Below, piece after piece: positions 1 through 12,951 of a stretch of DNA of 12,951 nucleotides; the stretch's first letter is position 1, and the number at the start of each line of letters is the position of its first letter. Made by a program: the position numbers and the translations under genes. The notes under the pieces are model-generated. The model had not been told where the DNA came from and did no database searches. It was given only the letters and a program-made list of their open reading frames with translations. This stretch comes from a virus (taxonomy: Duplodnaviria; Heunggongvirae; Uroviricota; Caudoviricetes), in IMG/VR virus record IMGVR_UViG_2671180662_000002. One strand, given 5' to 3'.

Positions 1-61
1 AATCGGAAAATCGATACTGGAAAAACTCTAACTCGGTGGCCAGTTTTTGTTGACCACTTCA
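1..61 (+). mobile_element. Right terminal end (inverted repeat) of an IS3-family insertion sequence whose body lies upstream of the window
   Basis: Read on the minus strand inward from position 61, the sequence is TGAAGTGGTCAACAAAAACTGGCCAC. It starts with TGA and has GGCCAC at positions 21-26, mirroring the IS end at 12717 (TGAGGTAGCCTGAGTTTAACGGACAC, GGACAC at 21-26). IS3-family elements end 5'-TG...CA-3', and the + strand here ends ...CACTTCA at 61. All three forward frames are closed within bases 1-100, so the downstream terminase has no upstream continuation. Boundary is approximate to a few bp. Confidence 0.5.
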
Positions 62-1102
62 CCTTTCTTTCCGAACCTTGTTGATCACCTTCTGGTTAAG
101 CATCACACGGCTGATGGCGTTGAAGATGGCATTTCAATCTGCTACTTCAAGCCATACTCGCAAGGCCGTGCTCGCTGGCAGGGTGACACAATCCACGGCG
201 TGTGGTTTGACGAAGAGCCACCATACAGCATTTATGGCGAAGGTCTTACCCGTACCAACAAATACGGGCAATTCTCAATTCTGACGTTTACCCCGCTGAT
301 GGGGATGTCTGACGTTGTTACCAAGTTCCTGAAGAACCCCAGCAAGTCGCAGAAAGTGGTCAACATGACCATCTATGACGCTGAGCACTATACCGACGAG
401 CAGAAAGAGCAAATCATCGCATCATATCCCGAGCATGAGAGAGAGGCGCGTGCTCGCGGTATTCCTACGATGGGTAGTGGTCGAATCTTCCAGATACCGG
501 AAGAGACGATTAAGTGTCAGCCGTTCGAGTGTCCTGATCACTTCTACGTAATTGGCGGGATGGATTTCGGATGGGATCACCCACAGGCGCAAGTTCAGCT
601 TTGGTGGGATAAGGAGGCAGACACAATCTACGTTTCACGCGTGTGGAAGGCGAAAGAAAAAACAGCCGTTCAGGCGTGGGGAGCCGTTAAATCATGGGCG
701 CATAAAGTGCCAACCGCATGGCCTCATGATGGAAACCAGCACGAGAAGGGCGGCGGTGAGCAGCTCAAAGGGCAGTATGCAGACGCTGGATTTATGATGT
801 TGCAGGAGCATGCGACATGGCCTGATGGCGGTAACGCTGTTGAGCCAGGCATCACTGAATTGCGCGACATGATGCTCGATGGTCGCTTCAAAGTATTCAA
901 TACCTGTGAGCCATTCTTTGAGGAGTTCCGCCTCTATCACCGTGATGAAAACGGGAAAATCGTCAAGCTTAACGACGACGTGCTATCCGCCGTTCGCTAT
1001 GCATACATGATGCGCCGCTTCGCAAAAATGATGCGCGACATCAAAAAACCAAAAGAGAAAAAGATACCAGCCCCAATCAGGCCCATCGCACGGAGAACTT
1101 AA
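62..1102 (+). pseudogene. 2: Terminase large subunit (TerL), 5'-truncated: Walker B, coupling motif and nuclease domain retained, N-terminal region with Walker A absent
   Basis: Translation contains a Walker B-like GVWFDEE, an ILTFTP coupling-motif-like segment, and an RNaseH-like nuclease signature (YVIGGMDFG, then LNDDVLSAVRYA near the C-terminus). It sits immediately upstream of the portal gene, as in P22. The ORF-track start at 47 is a TTG inside the putative IS repeat, with an in-frame TAA at 29-31. About 347 codons remain, against roughly 470-500 aa for full-length P22-like TerL (recalled). Confidence 0.85.
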
Positions 1103-4193: not shown

Positions 4194-5488
4194 TGGCATT
4201 AAATGAAGGTCAACTGGTCACGTATGCTCTGGATGAAATCATCGGAACCGTCCAGAACCTGACGCCAATGGCGTCAAAAGTGACAAAATACCCCCCTCCG
4301 GCAGAATCCATGCAGCGTTCAAGCAACACCGTGTGGATGCCTGTTGAGCAGGAAGCGCCAACCCAGACTGGCTGGGATTTAACTGGCAACGCAACCGGGA
4401 TTCTGGAACTCTCCGTGAAGTGCAACATGGGCGATCCGGATAACGATTTCTTCGAGCTTCGTGCAGATGACCTGCGTGATGAGCGTTCTTACCGTCGCCG
4501 CATCCAGGCATCCGCCAAAAAACTGGCGAATAACATTGAGTCAGCGATTGCCAAACAGGCAACTGAAATGGGCTCGCTTGTTGTTCACGATACCCGCGCA
4601 ATTGGTCCATCGACTGGCCTGCCTGGCTGGGATTTTGTGTCTGATGCAGAGCGACTGATGTTCTCCCGTGAGCTAAACCGCGACATGGGCATCAGTTACT
4701 TCCTGAACCCTGACGATTACCGCAAAGCAGGCCGCAACCTGGTAGATGGTGACATCTTCGGGCGCGTTCCTGAAGAAGCATATCGAAACGGTACTATTCA
4801 GCGTCAGATTGCTGGCTTTGATGAAATTCTTCGCTCACCGAAACTTCCGGCAGTTACCAAGTCAACCGCGACTGGTGTAACTGTTTCTGGTGCGCAGAAG
4901 TTTAAGCCGCAGGCATACACCCTTGATACCGATGGTAACAAAGAGAACGTCGACAACCGTGTTGCAACGGTGACCGTATCCTCCACCACCGGATTTAAGC
5001 GCGGCGACAAAATCAGCTTCATTGGTGTGAAGTTCCTGTCTCAGATGGCGAAGAATGTGCTGACTGATGACGCGACTTTCTCAATCACCCGTGTGATCGA
5101 TGGTACTCACATCGAAATCACGCCGAAGCCGATTGCGCTGGATGACGCGTCACTGACAAAAGAAGAGAAGGCTTACGCTAACGTAAACACCTCTCTTGCT
5201 GATACCACTCCGGTAAACGTTCTGAACGTGGCAACAACCACCGCTAACGTGTTCTGGGCTGATGACTCAATCCGCCTGCTGTCTCAGCCGATCCCGGTAA
5301 CCCATGAACTGTTTGCTGGCATGAAAACGTCTTCCTTCAGCATTCCAGGTATTGGTGTTAACGGCATCTTCGCAACGCAGGGTGATATCAACACTCTGTC
5401 TGGTAAGTGCCGTATTGCTGTGTGGTATTCAGCATGTGCTGTACGACCAGAGGCAATTGGTGTTGGTCTGCCTAACCAGACCGCGTGA
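4193..5488 (+). CDS. 5: Major capsid (coat) protein (P22 gp5 family, HK97-like fold)
   Basis: 431 aa (P22 gp5 is 430 aa as I recall). N-terminus MALNEGQ and C-terminus [13 protein letters not shown] match P22 coat, with many conserved internal blocks ([49 protein letters not shown]). Start overlaps the scaffold stop (TAATG). Confidence 0.95.
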
Positions 5489-5496
5489 TAACCAGA

Positions 5497-5518
5497 GGGA
5501 GCTTCGGCTCCCGTTTTT
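5497..5518 (+). terminator. Rho-independent terminator-like hairpin just downstream of the coat gene
   Basis: GGGAGC (5497-5502), TTCG loop, GCTCCC (5507-5512), then G and TTTTT (5514-5518). A GC-rich 6-bp stem with a tetraloop and a T-run, 9 nt after the coat stop codon. Possibly a partial terminator or attenuator inside the late operon. Confidence 0.5.
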
Positions 5519-5532
5519 ATCTGGAGACAAGC

Positions 5533-5763
5533 ATGACACACATGATCTTTCGTCATGGCGACATGAAGAAGTGGAAAGGCGTTGGCTACGACTTTGAAAT
5601 CGTGAAAGCCGAAGAGCTTCAGGAATATCTGGATGCTGGCTGGTTTTCACATCCTGATGACCTTTTGAAGGATGTTGCAGAGCCAGAGCCAGAAGAAAAA
5701 CAGCGTAAAAAGCCTGGTCGAAAACCTAAGGCGGCAGCAGATGAACCTGACAACGAAGGGTGA
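5533..5763 (+). CDS. Small hypothetical protein (76 aa) between coat and gp4; acidic core with a Lys/Pro-rich basic tail
   Basis: ATG at 5533 with GGAG 6 nt upstream (5523-5526). Translation [76 protein letters not shown]. Its 3' end overlaps the gp4 start by 23 nt in another frame. The ORF-track start at 5485 is GTG and overlaps the coat stop; I prefer 5533. Function unknown. Confidence 0.45.
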
Positions 5764-6241
5764 TTTAGTTCTTGCGGCATTACGTAAGCTCGGTGTTGCA
5801 TCAAATGCCACGTTAACCGATGTCGAACCGCAGTCTATGGAAGACGGCGTCAACGACCTTGAAATGATGATGGCTGAATGGCTTGGCGGTGATGCGTCAC
5901 CTGGTATCAACGTTGGCTACATTTTTGCTGATGCAGATGTTGCTCCGGATCCGGGCGATGAGCACGGTTTATCAAATAACGCTATCAATGCCGTCATTTT
6001 CAACCTTGCCTGCCGAATTGCTCCAGATTATGCGCTGGAAGCGTCTGCAAAACTTATAACCACTGCCAGATACGGGAAAGAGCGACTCGTCAAACTGTCT
6101 GCAATGGACAGGGCAAAAGCAGCTAAATGTAAGTCCGGTTATCCAAACCGTATGCCTGTTGGTAGTGGTAACCAGTTGGCGAAGTGGAATGGTTGGAATT
6201 ACTTCCACCGAAAGGAACCTTGCGATAACGGGAGCGAATAA
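5741..6241 (+). CDS. 4: Tail adaptor / head-completion protein (P22 gp4 family)
   Basis: Start chosen at the internal ATG 5741 ([33 protein letters not shown]...), giving 166 aa. This matches the P22 gp4 N-terminus I recall ([21 protein letters not shown]...) and its length. Conserved [15 protein letters not shown] block. The ORF-track start at 5672 adds 23 non-homologous residues and is rejected. Confidence 0.85.
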
Positions 6242-10998: not shown

Positions 10999-12729
10999 AT
11001 GGCTAATTACCGTGATTTGTTAGAGCAGGCTGGCGCACGTTACGGTGTGCCAGAAGGGTTGATGACTGCACTGGGTGCCAAGGAGTCTTCTTACAACCCT
11101 GCCGCAGTAAGCTCCGCCGGGGCTGTAGGATTGACTCAGGTCATGCCTGGGACATGGCGTGATATGGGTTATACCGATGAGCAAATGCAAAACCCCGAAT
11201 ATCAGGCTGACGCTGGCGCGCGCTATCTGGCAAAGATGTACCAGCAGTTTGGTAACTGGCGTGACTCTCTTCAGGCTTATCACGACGGTCCCGGCAACGT
11301 TATGAAGGCAAAGCGTGGTGAATATACGCCAGGACCTGAAGGCCGCGGTTACGTTGATGATCGCTTTGCTCAATGGGCTGGTGACCCGGTGACAGACTCA
11401 ACAGTCGAACAGCGCGCCACCTCTGCAAAGGTACATCCTCAGCAAGACCCTAACAACCCGTTTGCACAACTGGAAGTACAGTCATCCGAACAAGTATCGG
11501 CATCAGGTGTGCAGTCAGACCCAAATAATCCATTTGCTCAGATTGAGCAGCAGGCAGCCAGTCAGCAGCCACCTCAACCCGTAAGTTCTGTCGCACCGAA
11601 ACCTGTTCAGCAACAAACAGTTAATCAGGCCAATAATGCACCAACACGGGAAGAACCATCATTGATGCAACAAGCTGGCGATTGGCTCACTGGTGGTCAA
11701 AGTGCAGGGCAAATTGCAGAACAGGCTGGTCGTGGTCTGGTAAACATACCATTTGACGTATTGCAGGGTGGCGCAAGTCTGATTAATGCAATCAGTCAGG
11801 GGCTTGGGGGGCCAAAAGTATTGGATGATGTTTATCGTCCAGTAGACAGACCGACAGACCCCTACGCGCAAGCTGGAGAGTCAATAGGCGGTTATCTTGT
11901 TCCTGGAGCAGGTGTAGCTGGAAACATGGTCATTGGTTCTCTCGCTGACGCGGCGAATCAACGGGGTGATTTTGCCGAAAATGCCGCTATTAATGCCGGA
12001 CTTAGCATTGCTACGCATGGCCTGATAAATGGCGTTACCCGTGGTGTTCGTGGTGCATCAAATATAATTAGTGGCAATAAAACATCTGCACAGAGAGCGA
12101 CCACTGCGCCAACAGAAACATCACCATTCTCCGGTGATGCCGCTGCAGCAACAAATCCTGCGGTTCATGCCGCAGAGGCAAGAGTAGCACAAGGTGTACC
12201 AATGACGCCTGCGACGAAGAACCCAGAGGAAGTCGTTCGCACAGTAGCAGCACAAAAAAGGCCAAATCTCGCTTCATCGCTTGATGAACTAGATATCAAT
12301 CCTCAGGCTGAAGTTCTGGAGTCTGCTGAAAGGCTTAATGTTGATTCATTACTCCCTTCACACTTTTCCGGGAACGAGCAATACAAGGCAGTTGAGCAAG
12401 CAATCAAGTCCCGTGCGGGTTCTGCTCTACAGGTGCAGGAAAATGAAGCAATCAGGCAGCTAGCACAGGGCGCGGGTGAGATAATTGATCGCGTTTCCGG
12501 TGCAAAAGATGCTCTTGGTATGAGCGACAAGTTTATTGATACGGTCAATGGAAGAATGTCTGCGCTGATGAAACGAAGCGACCAGCTTTATCGCAATGTT
12601 GAAAAGGCGATGCCTGCAGGTGCAAAAATTGATGCGCCATCAACAAGGTCAATGCTCAAACAGGTGGCAGAAGATCTTGGCGGGATGAAAAACCTTGACC
12701 CTATTGAAAAGAGAGTTGAGGTAGCCTGA
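10999..12729 (+). CDS. 16: Ejection (E) protein at the gp16 position, with an N-terminal lytic transglycosylase (SLT) domain; the last codons and stop come from the adjacent IS inverted repeat, so it is probably 3'-truncated
   Basis: 576 aa. Residues about 8-115 carry family-1 lytic transglycosylase motifs: AKESSYNP (candidate catalytic Glu29), [10 protein letters not shown], and [10 protein letters not shown] tandem motif DPNNPFAQ(L/I)E follows. The C-terminal half is Ala/Gly-rich. The stop TGA at 12727-12729 lies inside the putative IS left repeat, which starts about 12717. Start abuts the gp20 stop. Confidence 0.78.
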
Positions 12730-12951
12730 GTTTAACGGACACTCCTTCCTGAAATAGAATGGCATCAGAAGGAGCTAATAATGAGCAGAAAAACCCAACG
12801 TTACTCTAAAGAGTTCAAAGCCGAAGCTGTCAGAACGGTTCTTGAAAATCAACTTTCGATCAGTGAAGGCGCTTCCCGATTATCCCTTCCTGAAGGCACT
12901 TTAGGACAATGGGTTACCGCCGCCAGAAAAGGGCTCGGTACTCCTGGTTCC
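12717..12951 (+). mobile_element. Left end of an IS3-family insertion sequence (IS600-like), continuing beyond the window end
   Basis: Terminal repeat TGAGGTAGCCTGAGTTTAACGGACAC starts with TG and has GGACAC at positions 21-26, as in the IS3 left repeat I recall (TGATCTTACCCAGCAATAGTGGACAC). It is followed by an AGGAG ribosome-binding site and an OrfA-type reading frame. Exact first base is uncertain by a few nt. Confidence 0.8.
12781..12951 (+). CDS. IS3-family transposase OrfA (helix-turn-helix DNA-binding N-terminal part), 3'-partial at window end
   Basis: ATG at 12781 with AGGAG 7 nt upstream. Translation MSRKTQRYSKEFKAEAVRTVLENQLSISEGASRLSLPEGTLGQWVTAARKGLGTPGS has the short basic N-terminus and helix-turn-helix typical of IS3-family OrfA. 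It resembles what I recall for IS600 of Shigella. The ORF runs off the end of the window. Confidence 0.85.
   Translation, partial: MSRKTQRYSKEFKAEAVRTVLENQLSISEGASRLSLPEGTLGQWVTAARKGLGTPGS

Follow-up and report, generated by a model that had tools for sequence, protein, structure and literature searches.

In bacteriophage T7, the terminator T-phi follows gene 10, and its termination efficiency has been measured. Stem-loops likewise follow the capsid genes of phages HK97 and lambda; in all three phages, the hairpin lies directly 3' of the most-needed structural gene and within a longer operon in which genes further downstream must also be expressed. Within the P22 group, equivalent elements after the coat gene have been annotated as terminator 't coat' in Sf6 and as 'tGP5' in HK620, and the P22 record has a 'stem_loop ... 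similar in location to stem-loops in phage HK97 and phage lambda', a parallel drawn by the record itself. P22 orf69, epsilon34 gene 6 and ST64T Orf-186 (PHROG 1175 / PHROG 3769) all occupy the slot after the coat gene and the hairpin, and have their stop codon inside gene 4. P22 orf69 is non-essential (PMC2629481, citing Eppler et al. 1991), and late operons of P22-type phages are turned on by Q antitermination (PMC2629481). A literature search on orf69, hkbT, WDGH and the post-coat terminator yielded the epsilon34 genome paper as the sole relevant item.

The DNA analyzed here, referred to as the window, is a stretch of 12,951 nucleotides, and is the late operon for virion assembly of a P22-like phage (Lederbergvirus). 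Twelve consecutive genes on the + strand abut or overlap one another in the ORF list, apart from a gap of 44 nt after the coat gene, the widest in the operon, in which a hairpin lies. Positions 5400-5850 are 94-99% identical to the E. coli phages APC_JM3.2, CurroJimenez_Bas106, IME10, HZ41, Dewey and Louie. The genes flanking positions 5489-5763 are labelled coat/head protein and head-tail adaptor gp4 in the records of near-identical phages, the coat/head label being carried by the same ORF in APC_JM3.2, Bas106 and IME10. An earlier note on this locus had described a terminator-like hairpin and a small, unassigned ORF wedged between the coat gene and gp4. Both features are already known from annotations of model phages of the P22 group; modestly new are the link between the domain of the small protein and a repeat of endonucleases, the separation of protein-level from Shine-Dalgarno-level constraint on its tail, and the recognition of inconsistent annotation. 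Read together, the sequence comparisons make it quite probable that the locus combines a leaky, t-coat-type hairpin with a real, non-essential gene of the orf69 family, the product of which would be a DNA-binding accessory protein (Table 1).

Table 1. Features of the coat-gp4 junction and their positions in the window.
Feature	Positions	Strand	Basis or remark
Coat (major head) protein gene, 431 aa	4193..5488	+	ORF list; stop TGA 5486-5488
GC-rich hairpin, 6-bp stem GGGAGC/GCTCCC, TTCG tetraloop ('t-coat'-type stem-loop)	5497..5512	+	Sequence, folding, covariation
T-tract GTTTTTAT 3' of the stem (U-tract of terminator-like element)	5513..5520	+	Read from sequence
Shine-Dalgarno GGAG of small ORF	5523..5526	+	Read from sequence; 6 nt before ATG 5533
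Small gene, 76 aa, P22 orf69 / epsilon34 gene 6 family (PHROG 1175)	5533..5763	+	Translation, profile match, selection
N-terminal domain, residues 1-48, predicted folded: beta-hairpin, helix, invariant G36-W37, short second helix	5533..5676	+	AlphaFold2 and relatives
(Glu-Pro)2 linker, 6-nt repeat GAGCCA	5680..5691	+	Copy number polymorphic among relatives
Basic Lys/Arg/Pro tail, AT-hook-like, predicted disordered	5698..5739	+	Translation and AlphaFold2
gp4 Shine-Dalgarno AAGGCGG, inside small ORF as Lys-Ala	5728..5734	+	Nucleotide comparison
gp4 (head-tail adaptor), 166 aa	5741..6241	+	First 23 nt (5741-5763) overlap small ORF, other frame

As the earlier note had stated, a hairpin with a T-run is present directly after the coat stop codon. 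Its arms (5497-5502 and 5507-5512) form six base pairs, five of which are G-C, and enclose the loop TTCG (5503-5506), which reads UUCG in RNA. The bases after the stem (5513-5520) are G, five T residues and AT; this U-tract, GUUUUUAU, adjoins the stem but opens with a G, which is sub-optimal for a terminator and, as judged from the sequence, should weaken termination. The core hairpin has a folding energy of -10.8 kcal/mol (-12.2 kcal/mol in its local context), which is adequate rather than too weak for the stable, GC-rich stem-loop of an intrinsic terminator. The region 5486-5535 folds at -16.7 kcal/mol, with a z-score of -2.6 relative to shuffles. An Rfam scan of the whole window matched no family. 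The minimum-energy fold also contains an outer helix, CCAGA/UCUGG, which would mask the ribosome-binding site of the small ORF; this helix was rejected, because the five variant loci lose the pairing with no compensatory change, and P22, Sf6 and Proteus V3 lack it altogether.

One explanation for the locus is chance, i.e., a random hairpin followed by a spurious ORF. For the hairpin, this would agree with a z-score of merely -2.6 and with the count of terminator-like sites in the window, which is 15 as compared with 14.0 +/- 3.8 in shuffles, so that the pattern by itself is at chance level. What places the post-coat hairpin above chance is not this pattern but its context and conservation. Among 81 close relatives (80 IMG/VR loci and the window), the 12 stem bases are the same in 80, and the sole variant, a change of A to G, leaves a G-U pair. 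T residues (T5-T7) directly follow the stem in 77 of these relatives, and G followed by T5 is found in four, including the window. A GC-rich hairpin directly 3' of the coat stop is also present in nine of nine other lineages sampled (P22, epsilon34, Sf6, APSE-2, phiSG1, Proteus V3, Vibrio 1.003.O, Shewanella ZP9 and Aeromonas 4_4512), with differing stem sequences; the energies in the ten lineages, including the window, range from -11 to -16 kcal/mol. In phiSG1, the hairpin is kept and an intact small ORF is absent.

In an alignment of nine tetraloop hairpins (the window and eight of the lineages), 98.1% of the stem cells are paired and three of the six pairs have changed on both sides. The covariation score was reached by none of 500 shuffles, and control alignments slid out of register were 41-72% paired. 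Because the alignment was anchored by hand on the hairpins, which favours pairing, the covariation is supporting evidence rather than proof. The covariation and the fixed position across distant phages nevertheless speak against a random hairpin. The terminator-like element of the earlier note is hence a conserved structure with terminator anatomy, located where annotators of the P22 group had already marked an element.

The function of this structure can be read in two ways. That the hairpin gives partial transcription termination is suggested by its sequence, and the likelihood of this falls a little short of even. In this role, it would leave less message for the low-copy genes of head completion downstream. 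Shielding of the 3' end of the coat/scaffold message is an equally possible role. Under either role, coat protein would be produced in excess, and the effect on stoichiometry suggested in the earlier note is plausible. As a terminator, the hairpin would have to be leaky. No strong promoter-like site of their own was found in the window for gp4, gp10 or other essential downstream genes, and any termination would be partial because of this and of Q-type antitermination. Polymerase antiterminated by lambdoid Q proteins generally ignores intrinsic terminators. Since Q-modified polymerase is therefore expected to pass the hairpin, the effect on transcription may be small, or the effect may be purely one of RNA stability.

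In the stricter form of this alternative, the hairpin would not terminate transcription in the phage at all; by blocking 3'-to-5' exonucleases or by serving as a processing signal, it would stabilize the scaffold/coat message. Consistent with this, the polymerase on these late operons is Q-antiterminated (PMC2629481), conservation is higher in the stem than in the U-tract, which is poor in the Aeromonas, phiSG1 and Shewanella phages, and the P22 annotators wrote only 'stem_loop', not terminator. However, at least four T residues are kept within the first 8 nt 3' of the stem in seven of the ten lineages, which would be needless for an exonuclease barrier, and the annotators of Sf6 and HK620 judged the post-coat hairpin to be a terminator. 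A hairpin without any terminating activity is thus considered fairly unlikely, and the terminator and stabilizer roles are compatible, so that both could operate. Partial termination would differ from that at T-phi in its setting: T7 uses its own RNA polymerase, whereas the window phage depends on host RNA polymerase under Q-type antitermination. As a naturally occurring and conserved element, the post-coat hairpin would lend itself to adjusting how much capsid protein is made relative to low-copy proteins, a principle that is well known.

Downstream of the hairpin, the ORF of 76 codons is present as the earlier note had described it, with a good ribosome-binding site, which is kept in relatives, and an overlap of 23 nt with gp4. 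The label 'unassigned' has to be given up, because the protein belongs to the P22 orf69 / epsilon34 gene 6 family. It matches the profile phrog_1175 with an E-value of 1.4e-37 (residues 1-74 on profile positions 1-72 of 72), and P22 orf69 matches the same profile (E 4.5e-31). Phage CurroJimenez_Bas106 encodes a hypothetical protein with 100% identity to it, and homologues number in the hundreds among Escherichia and Salmonella prophages. When 1.84 billion representative proteins were searched exhaustively with HMMER, no more than 34 clusters were recovered, indicating that the orf69-type family is narrow, and a second profile search, of a 5.8-billion-protein set, found mostly the same close relatives. 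Pfam, NCBIfam and PADLOC searches with the 76-aa protein gave only a sub-threshold match to DUF7302 (PF23976) and nothing defence-related. The DUF7302 match reaches 16.0 bits, below the cut-off of 24.9 (E 0.016), and a weak match of this kind is found in just four of 25 family members.

The window protein is 33-36% identical to the P22 and epsilon34 proteins, with which it has in common the N-terminal domain and a basic G-R/P-K-P-K-A tail; unlike these proteins, it carries a (Glu-Pro)2 linker, and its gene overlaps gp4 by 23 nt as compared with 17 nt in the P22-type system. The same layout, i.e., coat gene, small gene and overlapping gene 4, is found in P22, epsilon34 and Proteus V3. A common N-terminal domain of about 46 residues and a basic tail are present in P22 orf69 (69 aa), the Proteus V3 protein (69 aa) and epsilon34 gene 6 (186 aa), and in the epsilon34/ST64T version a WDGH domain of 100 residues (PF25311, E 1.7e-40) is inserted between the two. 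In Shewanella and Aeromonas phages, the N-terminal domain is present at the same locus with a different C-terminal domain. The N-terminal domain has thus been recombined with other modules, which adds to the case for a real gene. In the Vibrio, Shewanella and Aeromonas proteins, the C-terminal domain was also considered as a SAP/HeH DNA-binding motif; Pfam did not bear this out and weakly favours an EF-hand-like loop, and the reading was dropped.

In Sf6 ('t coat' and gene 6) and HK620 ('tGP5' and hkbT; PHROG 3251), the order of elements is that of the window, with the coat stop, a GC hairpin with a T-run, a ribosome-binding site and a small ORF. This ORF encodes 61 aa with a short K-R-G-R-K tail and ends 26 nt inside the gp4 homologue, the Shine-Dalgarno sequence of which is AAGGCGG. 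APSE-2 has an unannotated 63-aa ORF in the same slot and with the same order of elements that, like Sf6 gene 6 and HK620 hkbT, belongs to PHROG 3251. Homology of Sf6 gene 6 to the P22-type proteins was considered and is not supported (hhalign probability 1%, E 0.057; different PHROG). The Sf6 gene 6 / hkbT type is a positional analogue of the window ORF, and possibly a very distant relative.

Nucleotide variation among the 81 close relatives demonstrates that the small ORF is a protein gene. In codons 1-48 (144 nt, ungapped), there are 28 variants, 20 synonymous and 8 non-synonymous, at 27 synonymous and 117 non-synonymous sites, corresponding to a pN/pS of about 0.09 (binomial p 1.9e-9). Codon position 3 holds 21 of the 28 variants, and the ORF list contains no opposite-strand ORF that shares wobble positions over these codons. 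In the tail, synonymous variants are common and non-synonymous ones occur in one or two loci each. The reading frame is intact in 78 of 81 relatives; nonsense mutations (W14* and W37*) are found in two of 80 loci, and the stop codon is lost in one. As gp4 is an intact ORF of 166 aa in every one of the 79 loci whose sequence extends to its end, the nonsense mutants fit with the small gene being dispensable, in line with the non-essentiality of P22 orf69. These results establish the small ORF as a real gene under strong purifying selection; that it might encode a real minor protein had been considered in the earlier note. The codon-position-specific substitutions and the full-length PHROG match, together with the covariation of the hairpin, also refute the idea that hairpin and ORF both arose by chance, which is hardly credible.

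The small gene is further constrained at its 3' end by gp4. The N-terminus of gp4 in the window aligns with MQIKTKGDLV of P22 gp4. The window, P22, epsilon34, Proteus V3 and Sf6 have, base for base, the same gp4 Shine-Dalgarno sequence, AAGGCGG, 6-9 nt before the gp4 ATG, and Vibrio and Shewanella phages have AAGGAG or GAGGA at this position. The last seven codons of the small ORF are dual-coding with gp4. Given the embedded Shine-Dalgarno sequence and the overlap of 23 nt, ribosomes that finish the small ORF would be delivered onto the gp4 start. Such coupling may add to gp4 expression, and it would add to, not replace, a function of the protein.

The earlier note had also raised the possibility that the small ORF is merely a translated leader which brings ribosomes to gp4, the peptide itself being functionless. 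In all lineages examined, the stop codon lies within gp4, at a distance of 17-26 nt from its start; this and the position of the gp4 Shine-Dalgarno sequence inside the ORF would suit a leader, as would the non-essentiality of the P22 gene (PMC2629481) and the toleration of nonsense mutations in two of 80 relatives. However, coupling cannot account for selection on the sequence of the small protein, which is strong at the amino-acid level far upstream of gp4, nor does it call for the confidently predicted folded domain that is conserved across genera. In addition, gp4 has a good, conserved Shine-Dalgarno sequence of its own, and the folding of its start region (5700-5790) is not stronger than that of shuffles (z +0.4). 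The two nonsense-mutant loci, in one of which the contig ends inside gp4, give no sign of gp4 damage. A role as leader only is therefore disfavoured, and would be very unlikely.

An AlphaFold2 model of the protein, built on an alignment of 25 sequences, predicts strands at residues 2-14 and 17-25 and helices at residues 26-34 and 41-48, with pLDDT values of 85-92 for residues 1-40 and disorder from residue 49 on. In this model, the 76-aa protein consists of a folded domain of 46-48 residues, a Glu-Pro linker of variable length and a disordered basic tail. Relatives from Enterobacteriaceae, Proteus and Shewanella retain the N-terminal domain; the Vibrio relative is marginal, and the Aeromonas relative is recognized by alignment only. 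The linker (Glu-Pro)n ranges from n = 1 to about 13 among relatives, resulting in proteins of 74-100 aa. Because the repeat unit is six bases long, these indels are uninformative as to coding. In the APC_JM3.2 record, the Glu-Pro repeat is labelled 'repeat_region'. Searches with structures returned nothing informative, and searches of Protein Data Bank (PDB) sequences with the protein, with the domain and family profiles and with the endonuclease-repeat profile (see below) returned no credible match.

The tail was likened in the earlier note to an AT-hook. Its Lys/Pro-rich composition stands as quoted there, and like the AT-hook (PF02178, an HMGA-type minor-groove motif), it is a short stretch, predicted to be disordered, in which many Lys, Arg and Pro residues surround a Gly-Arg core. 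Membership in the AT-hook family does not follow: the core is P-G-R-K-P rather than R-G-R-P, Pfam AT_hook gives no match to the window tail KKPGRKPKA at E-values up to 1, and even the best-scoring relative (P0153, tail KRRGRPPKA) reaches 14 bits, below the cut-off of 17.4. The tails of several relatives read KRRGRPPKA, PKRGRPPKAA or KKRGRRPKG. The Gly-Arg-Lys codons are GGT CGA AAA in the window, GGC CGC AAG in P22 and GGT CGT AAG in Sf6; as these differences are synonymous, constraint on this part of the tail acts on the protein. By contrast, and unlike in an AT-hook, the Lys-Ala part of the window tail is set by the gp4 Shine-Dalgarno sequence and not by protein function. This separation of protein constraint from ribosome-binding-site constraint matters for the design of clean knock-outs.

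The N-terminal domain provides a further hint at function. A phmmer search of the 1.84 billion proteins detected GIY-YIG/HNH-type proteins with 4-5 stretches of the motif (E 1.5e-5, 1.4e-4 and 6.6e-4). Three multi-domain proteins were matched. Two have GIY-YIG domains, one of these also having matches to NUMOD3 and a group I intron endonuclease model; the third matches HNH_5 weakly, at 17.7 bits (E 0.0034), below the cut-off of 27.5. Each carries, in its non-catalytic part, a repeat of about 30 residues, 'hYhxKDGxxKxVxxEELQxYLxDGWxxG', in four or five tandem copies. For this tandem repeat, no Pfam or NCBIfam model and no solved structure were found. Comparison of the repeat profile with the profile of the small-protein domain by hhalign gave a probability of 96.6% and an E-value of 4.8e-10, over 20 columns only. 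The two have in common a strand-helix-'GW' core with the motif 'ELQxYLxxGW', the repeats reading EELQSYLDNGW or EELQVYLNDGW. The window domain differs in being a single copy with a longer beta-hairpin and no nuclease domain, and in that HP(D/S) comes next instead of G(R/K).

The C-terminal regions of GIY-YIG homing endonucleases such as I-TevI and I-BmoI bind DNA. As the repeat likewise sits in the non-catalytic part of the proteins matched, a DNA-binding role would be plausible for it. For the small protein, the nucleic-acid-binding role proposed in the earlier note thereby gains an independent hint from the likeness of its N-terminal domain to homing-endonuclease repeats. From the 'ELQxYLxxGW' core, which resembles that of the endonuclease repeats, and the resemblance of the tail to an AT-hook, we infer that the small protein would be produced late in infection as an accessory protein that binds nucleic acid, probably DNA.

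Alternatively, the small protein might be an assembly factor or a minor virion component that acts through protein-protein contacts, for example with the portal, gp4 or coat protein, and not through nucleic-acid binding. The slot between coat and head-completion genes is fixed in every lineage, as might be expected of such a factor, and an acidic linker and a basic tail could bind protein surfaces just as well. Many P22 and Sf6 virion structures are held in the PDB, and no chain in it matches the protein or the family profile, which argues against an assembly factor, albeit weakly. The motif in common with endonuclease repeat regions and the RGRP-type tails of some relatives, as well as the non-essentiality of the P22 homologue (PMC2629481), also argue against this alternative, making it distinctly unlikely.

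For the DNA-binding accessory protein, a more specific and rather doubtful form can be suggested from the sequence features: the orf69-family protein might be a dedicated small DNA-binding protein composed of one homing-endonuclease-type DNA-recognition module, a slippage-prone (Glu-Pro)n spacer and an AT-hook-like tail. If so, it would act late in infection on phage or host DNA, e.g., on packaged DNA or against host defence, and a function would be assigned to a P22 gene that has been unexplained since 1991. P22 is a textbook phage, and DNA binding by a module in common with homing endonucleases and by a basic tail is a concrete and cheaply testable hypothesis for the small gene that follows its coat gene and precedes gene 4.

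Across near-identical phage genomes, the small gene between coat and gp4 is annotated inconsistently. Some records wrongly extend gp4 upstream, an error that is correctable.

The spot occupied by the small gene and gp4 (window 5672–6241) is annotated differently among near-identical phage genomes, including those of IME10 and Dewey (see table); the Louie annotation is like that of Dewey, with a 45-aa ORF out of frame and a gp4 bearing an upstream extension. An ATG in the gp4 frame is also found upstream in the window, at 5672, and opens a 189-aa ORF. As the Shine-Dalgarno sequence is conserved and the N-terminus of P22 gp4 agrees with the shorter form, the sequence supports position 5741, not the in-frame ATG at 5672, as the true start of gp4.

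The linker of the small protein is encoded by a 6-nt microsatellite, GAGCCA (Glu-Pro), whose copy number ranges from about 1 to 13 across the 80 close-relative loci (at about 1645–1760), resulting in small-protein lengths of 74–100 aa. Glu-Ser, Glu-Gln, Glu-Thr or Asp-Pro units also occur in these linkers. Lesions are present in three of the 80 loci. In L011, T-to-G changes at about 1455 and 1731 abolish the coat TGA, which is followed by a TAA, and the stop codon of the small ORF; L025 and L086 carry nonsense codons in the small ORF (codons 37 and 14, respectively). These lesions may be sequencing errors or may reflect prophage decay.

More distant members of the family differ in domain architecture. 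The WDGH domain inserted in the epsilon34 version (Pfam PF25311, E 1.7e-40) is likewise inserted in that of ST64T and is also contained in larger phage proteins (phrog_3392); a literature search found nothing on the PF25311 domain. The helical domain of the Shewanella ZP9 and Aeromonas 4_4512 versions opens with an EF-hand-like loop (DKDSDGKLTKEE and DADGDGKLSHEE, respectively), and Pfam EF-hand matches in this C-terminal domain are weak (E 0.006–0.06).

In APSE-2, the 219-nt 'gap' separating the capsid gene P24 from P27 is occupied by an Sf6 gene 6-type ORF, which matches phrog_3251 at E 7e-30 and is preceded by a hairpin and T-run. In Sodalis phage phiSG1, the hairpin is retained 3' of the capsid gene, and the 294-nt spacer upstream of the gp4 homologue contains no intact ORF of the orf69 family; the small gene appears to have been lost or to have decayed there.

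Features at the small-gene slot and elsewhere (coordinates of the window or of each relative's locus)
Source	Position	Feature
Window	5680–5691	GAGCCA linker DNA
IME10	1773–2378	gp4 lengthened upstream, 201 aa; small gene left out
Dewey	1561–1698	Annotated out-of-frame 45-aa ORF
Dewey	1773–2366	Lengthened gp4
epsilon34	157–717	186 aa; WDGH domain between common N-terminal domain and common basic tail
Shewanella ZP9	621–911	Family N-terminal domain, then ~45-residue helical domain; basic tail absent
Aeromonas 4_4512	226–519	Family N-terminal domain, then ~45-residue helical domain; basic tail absent
APSE-2	714–905	63-aa ORF, missing from annotation
phiSG1	600–895	Hairpin and spacer
Dewey	1–226, minus strand	HNH endonuclease gene
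Window	12732–12760	Promoter-like site TTAACG-17-TAGAAT

The HNH endonuclease gene of Dewey lies immediately upstream of the coat gene on the opposite strand, whereas in the window and the remaining relatives that place is taken by the scaffolding gene. The promoter-like site lies immediately past the last long ORF of the window (10999–12729); in P22-like phages, this is the place of the variable 'ant moron' region.
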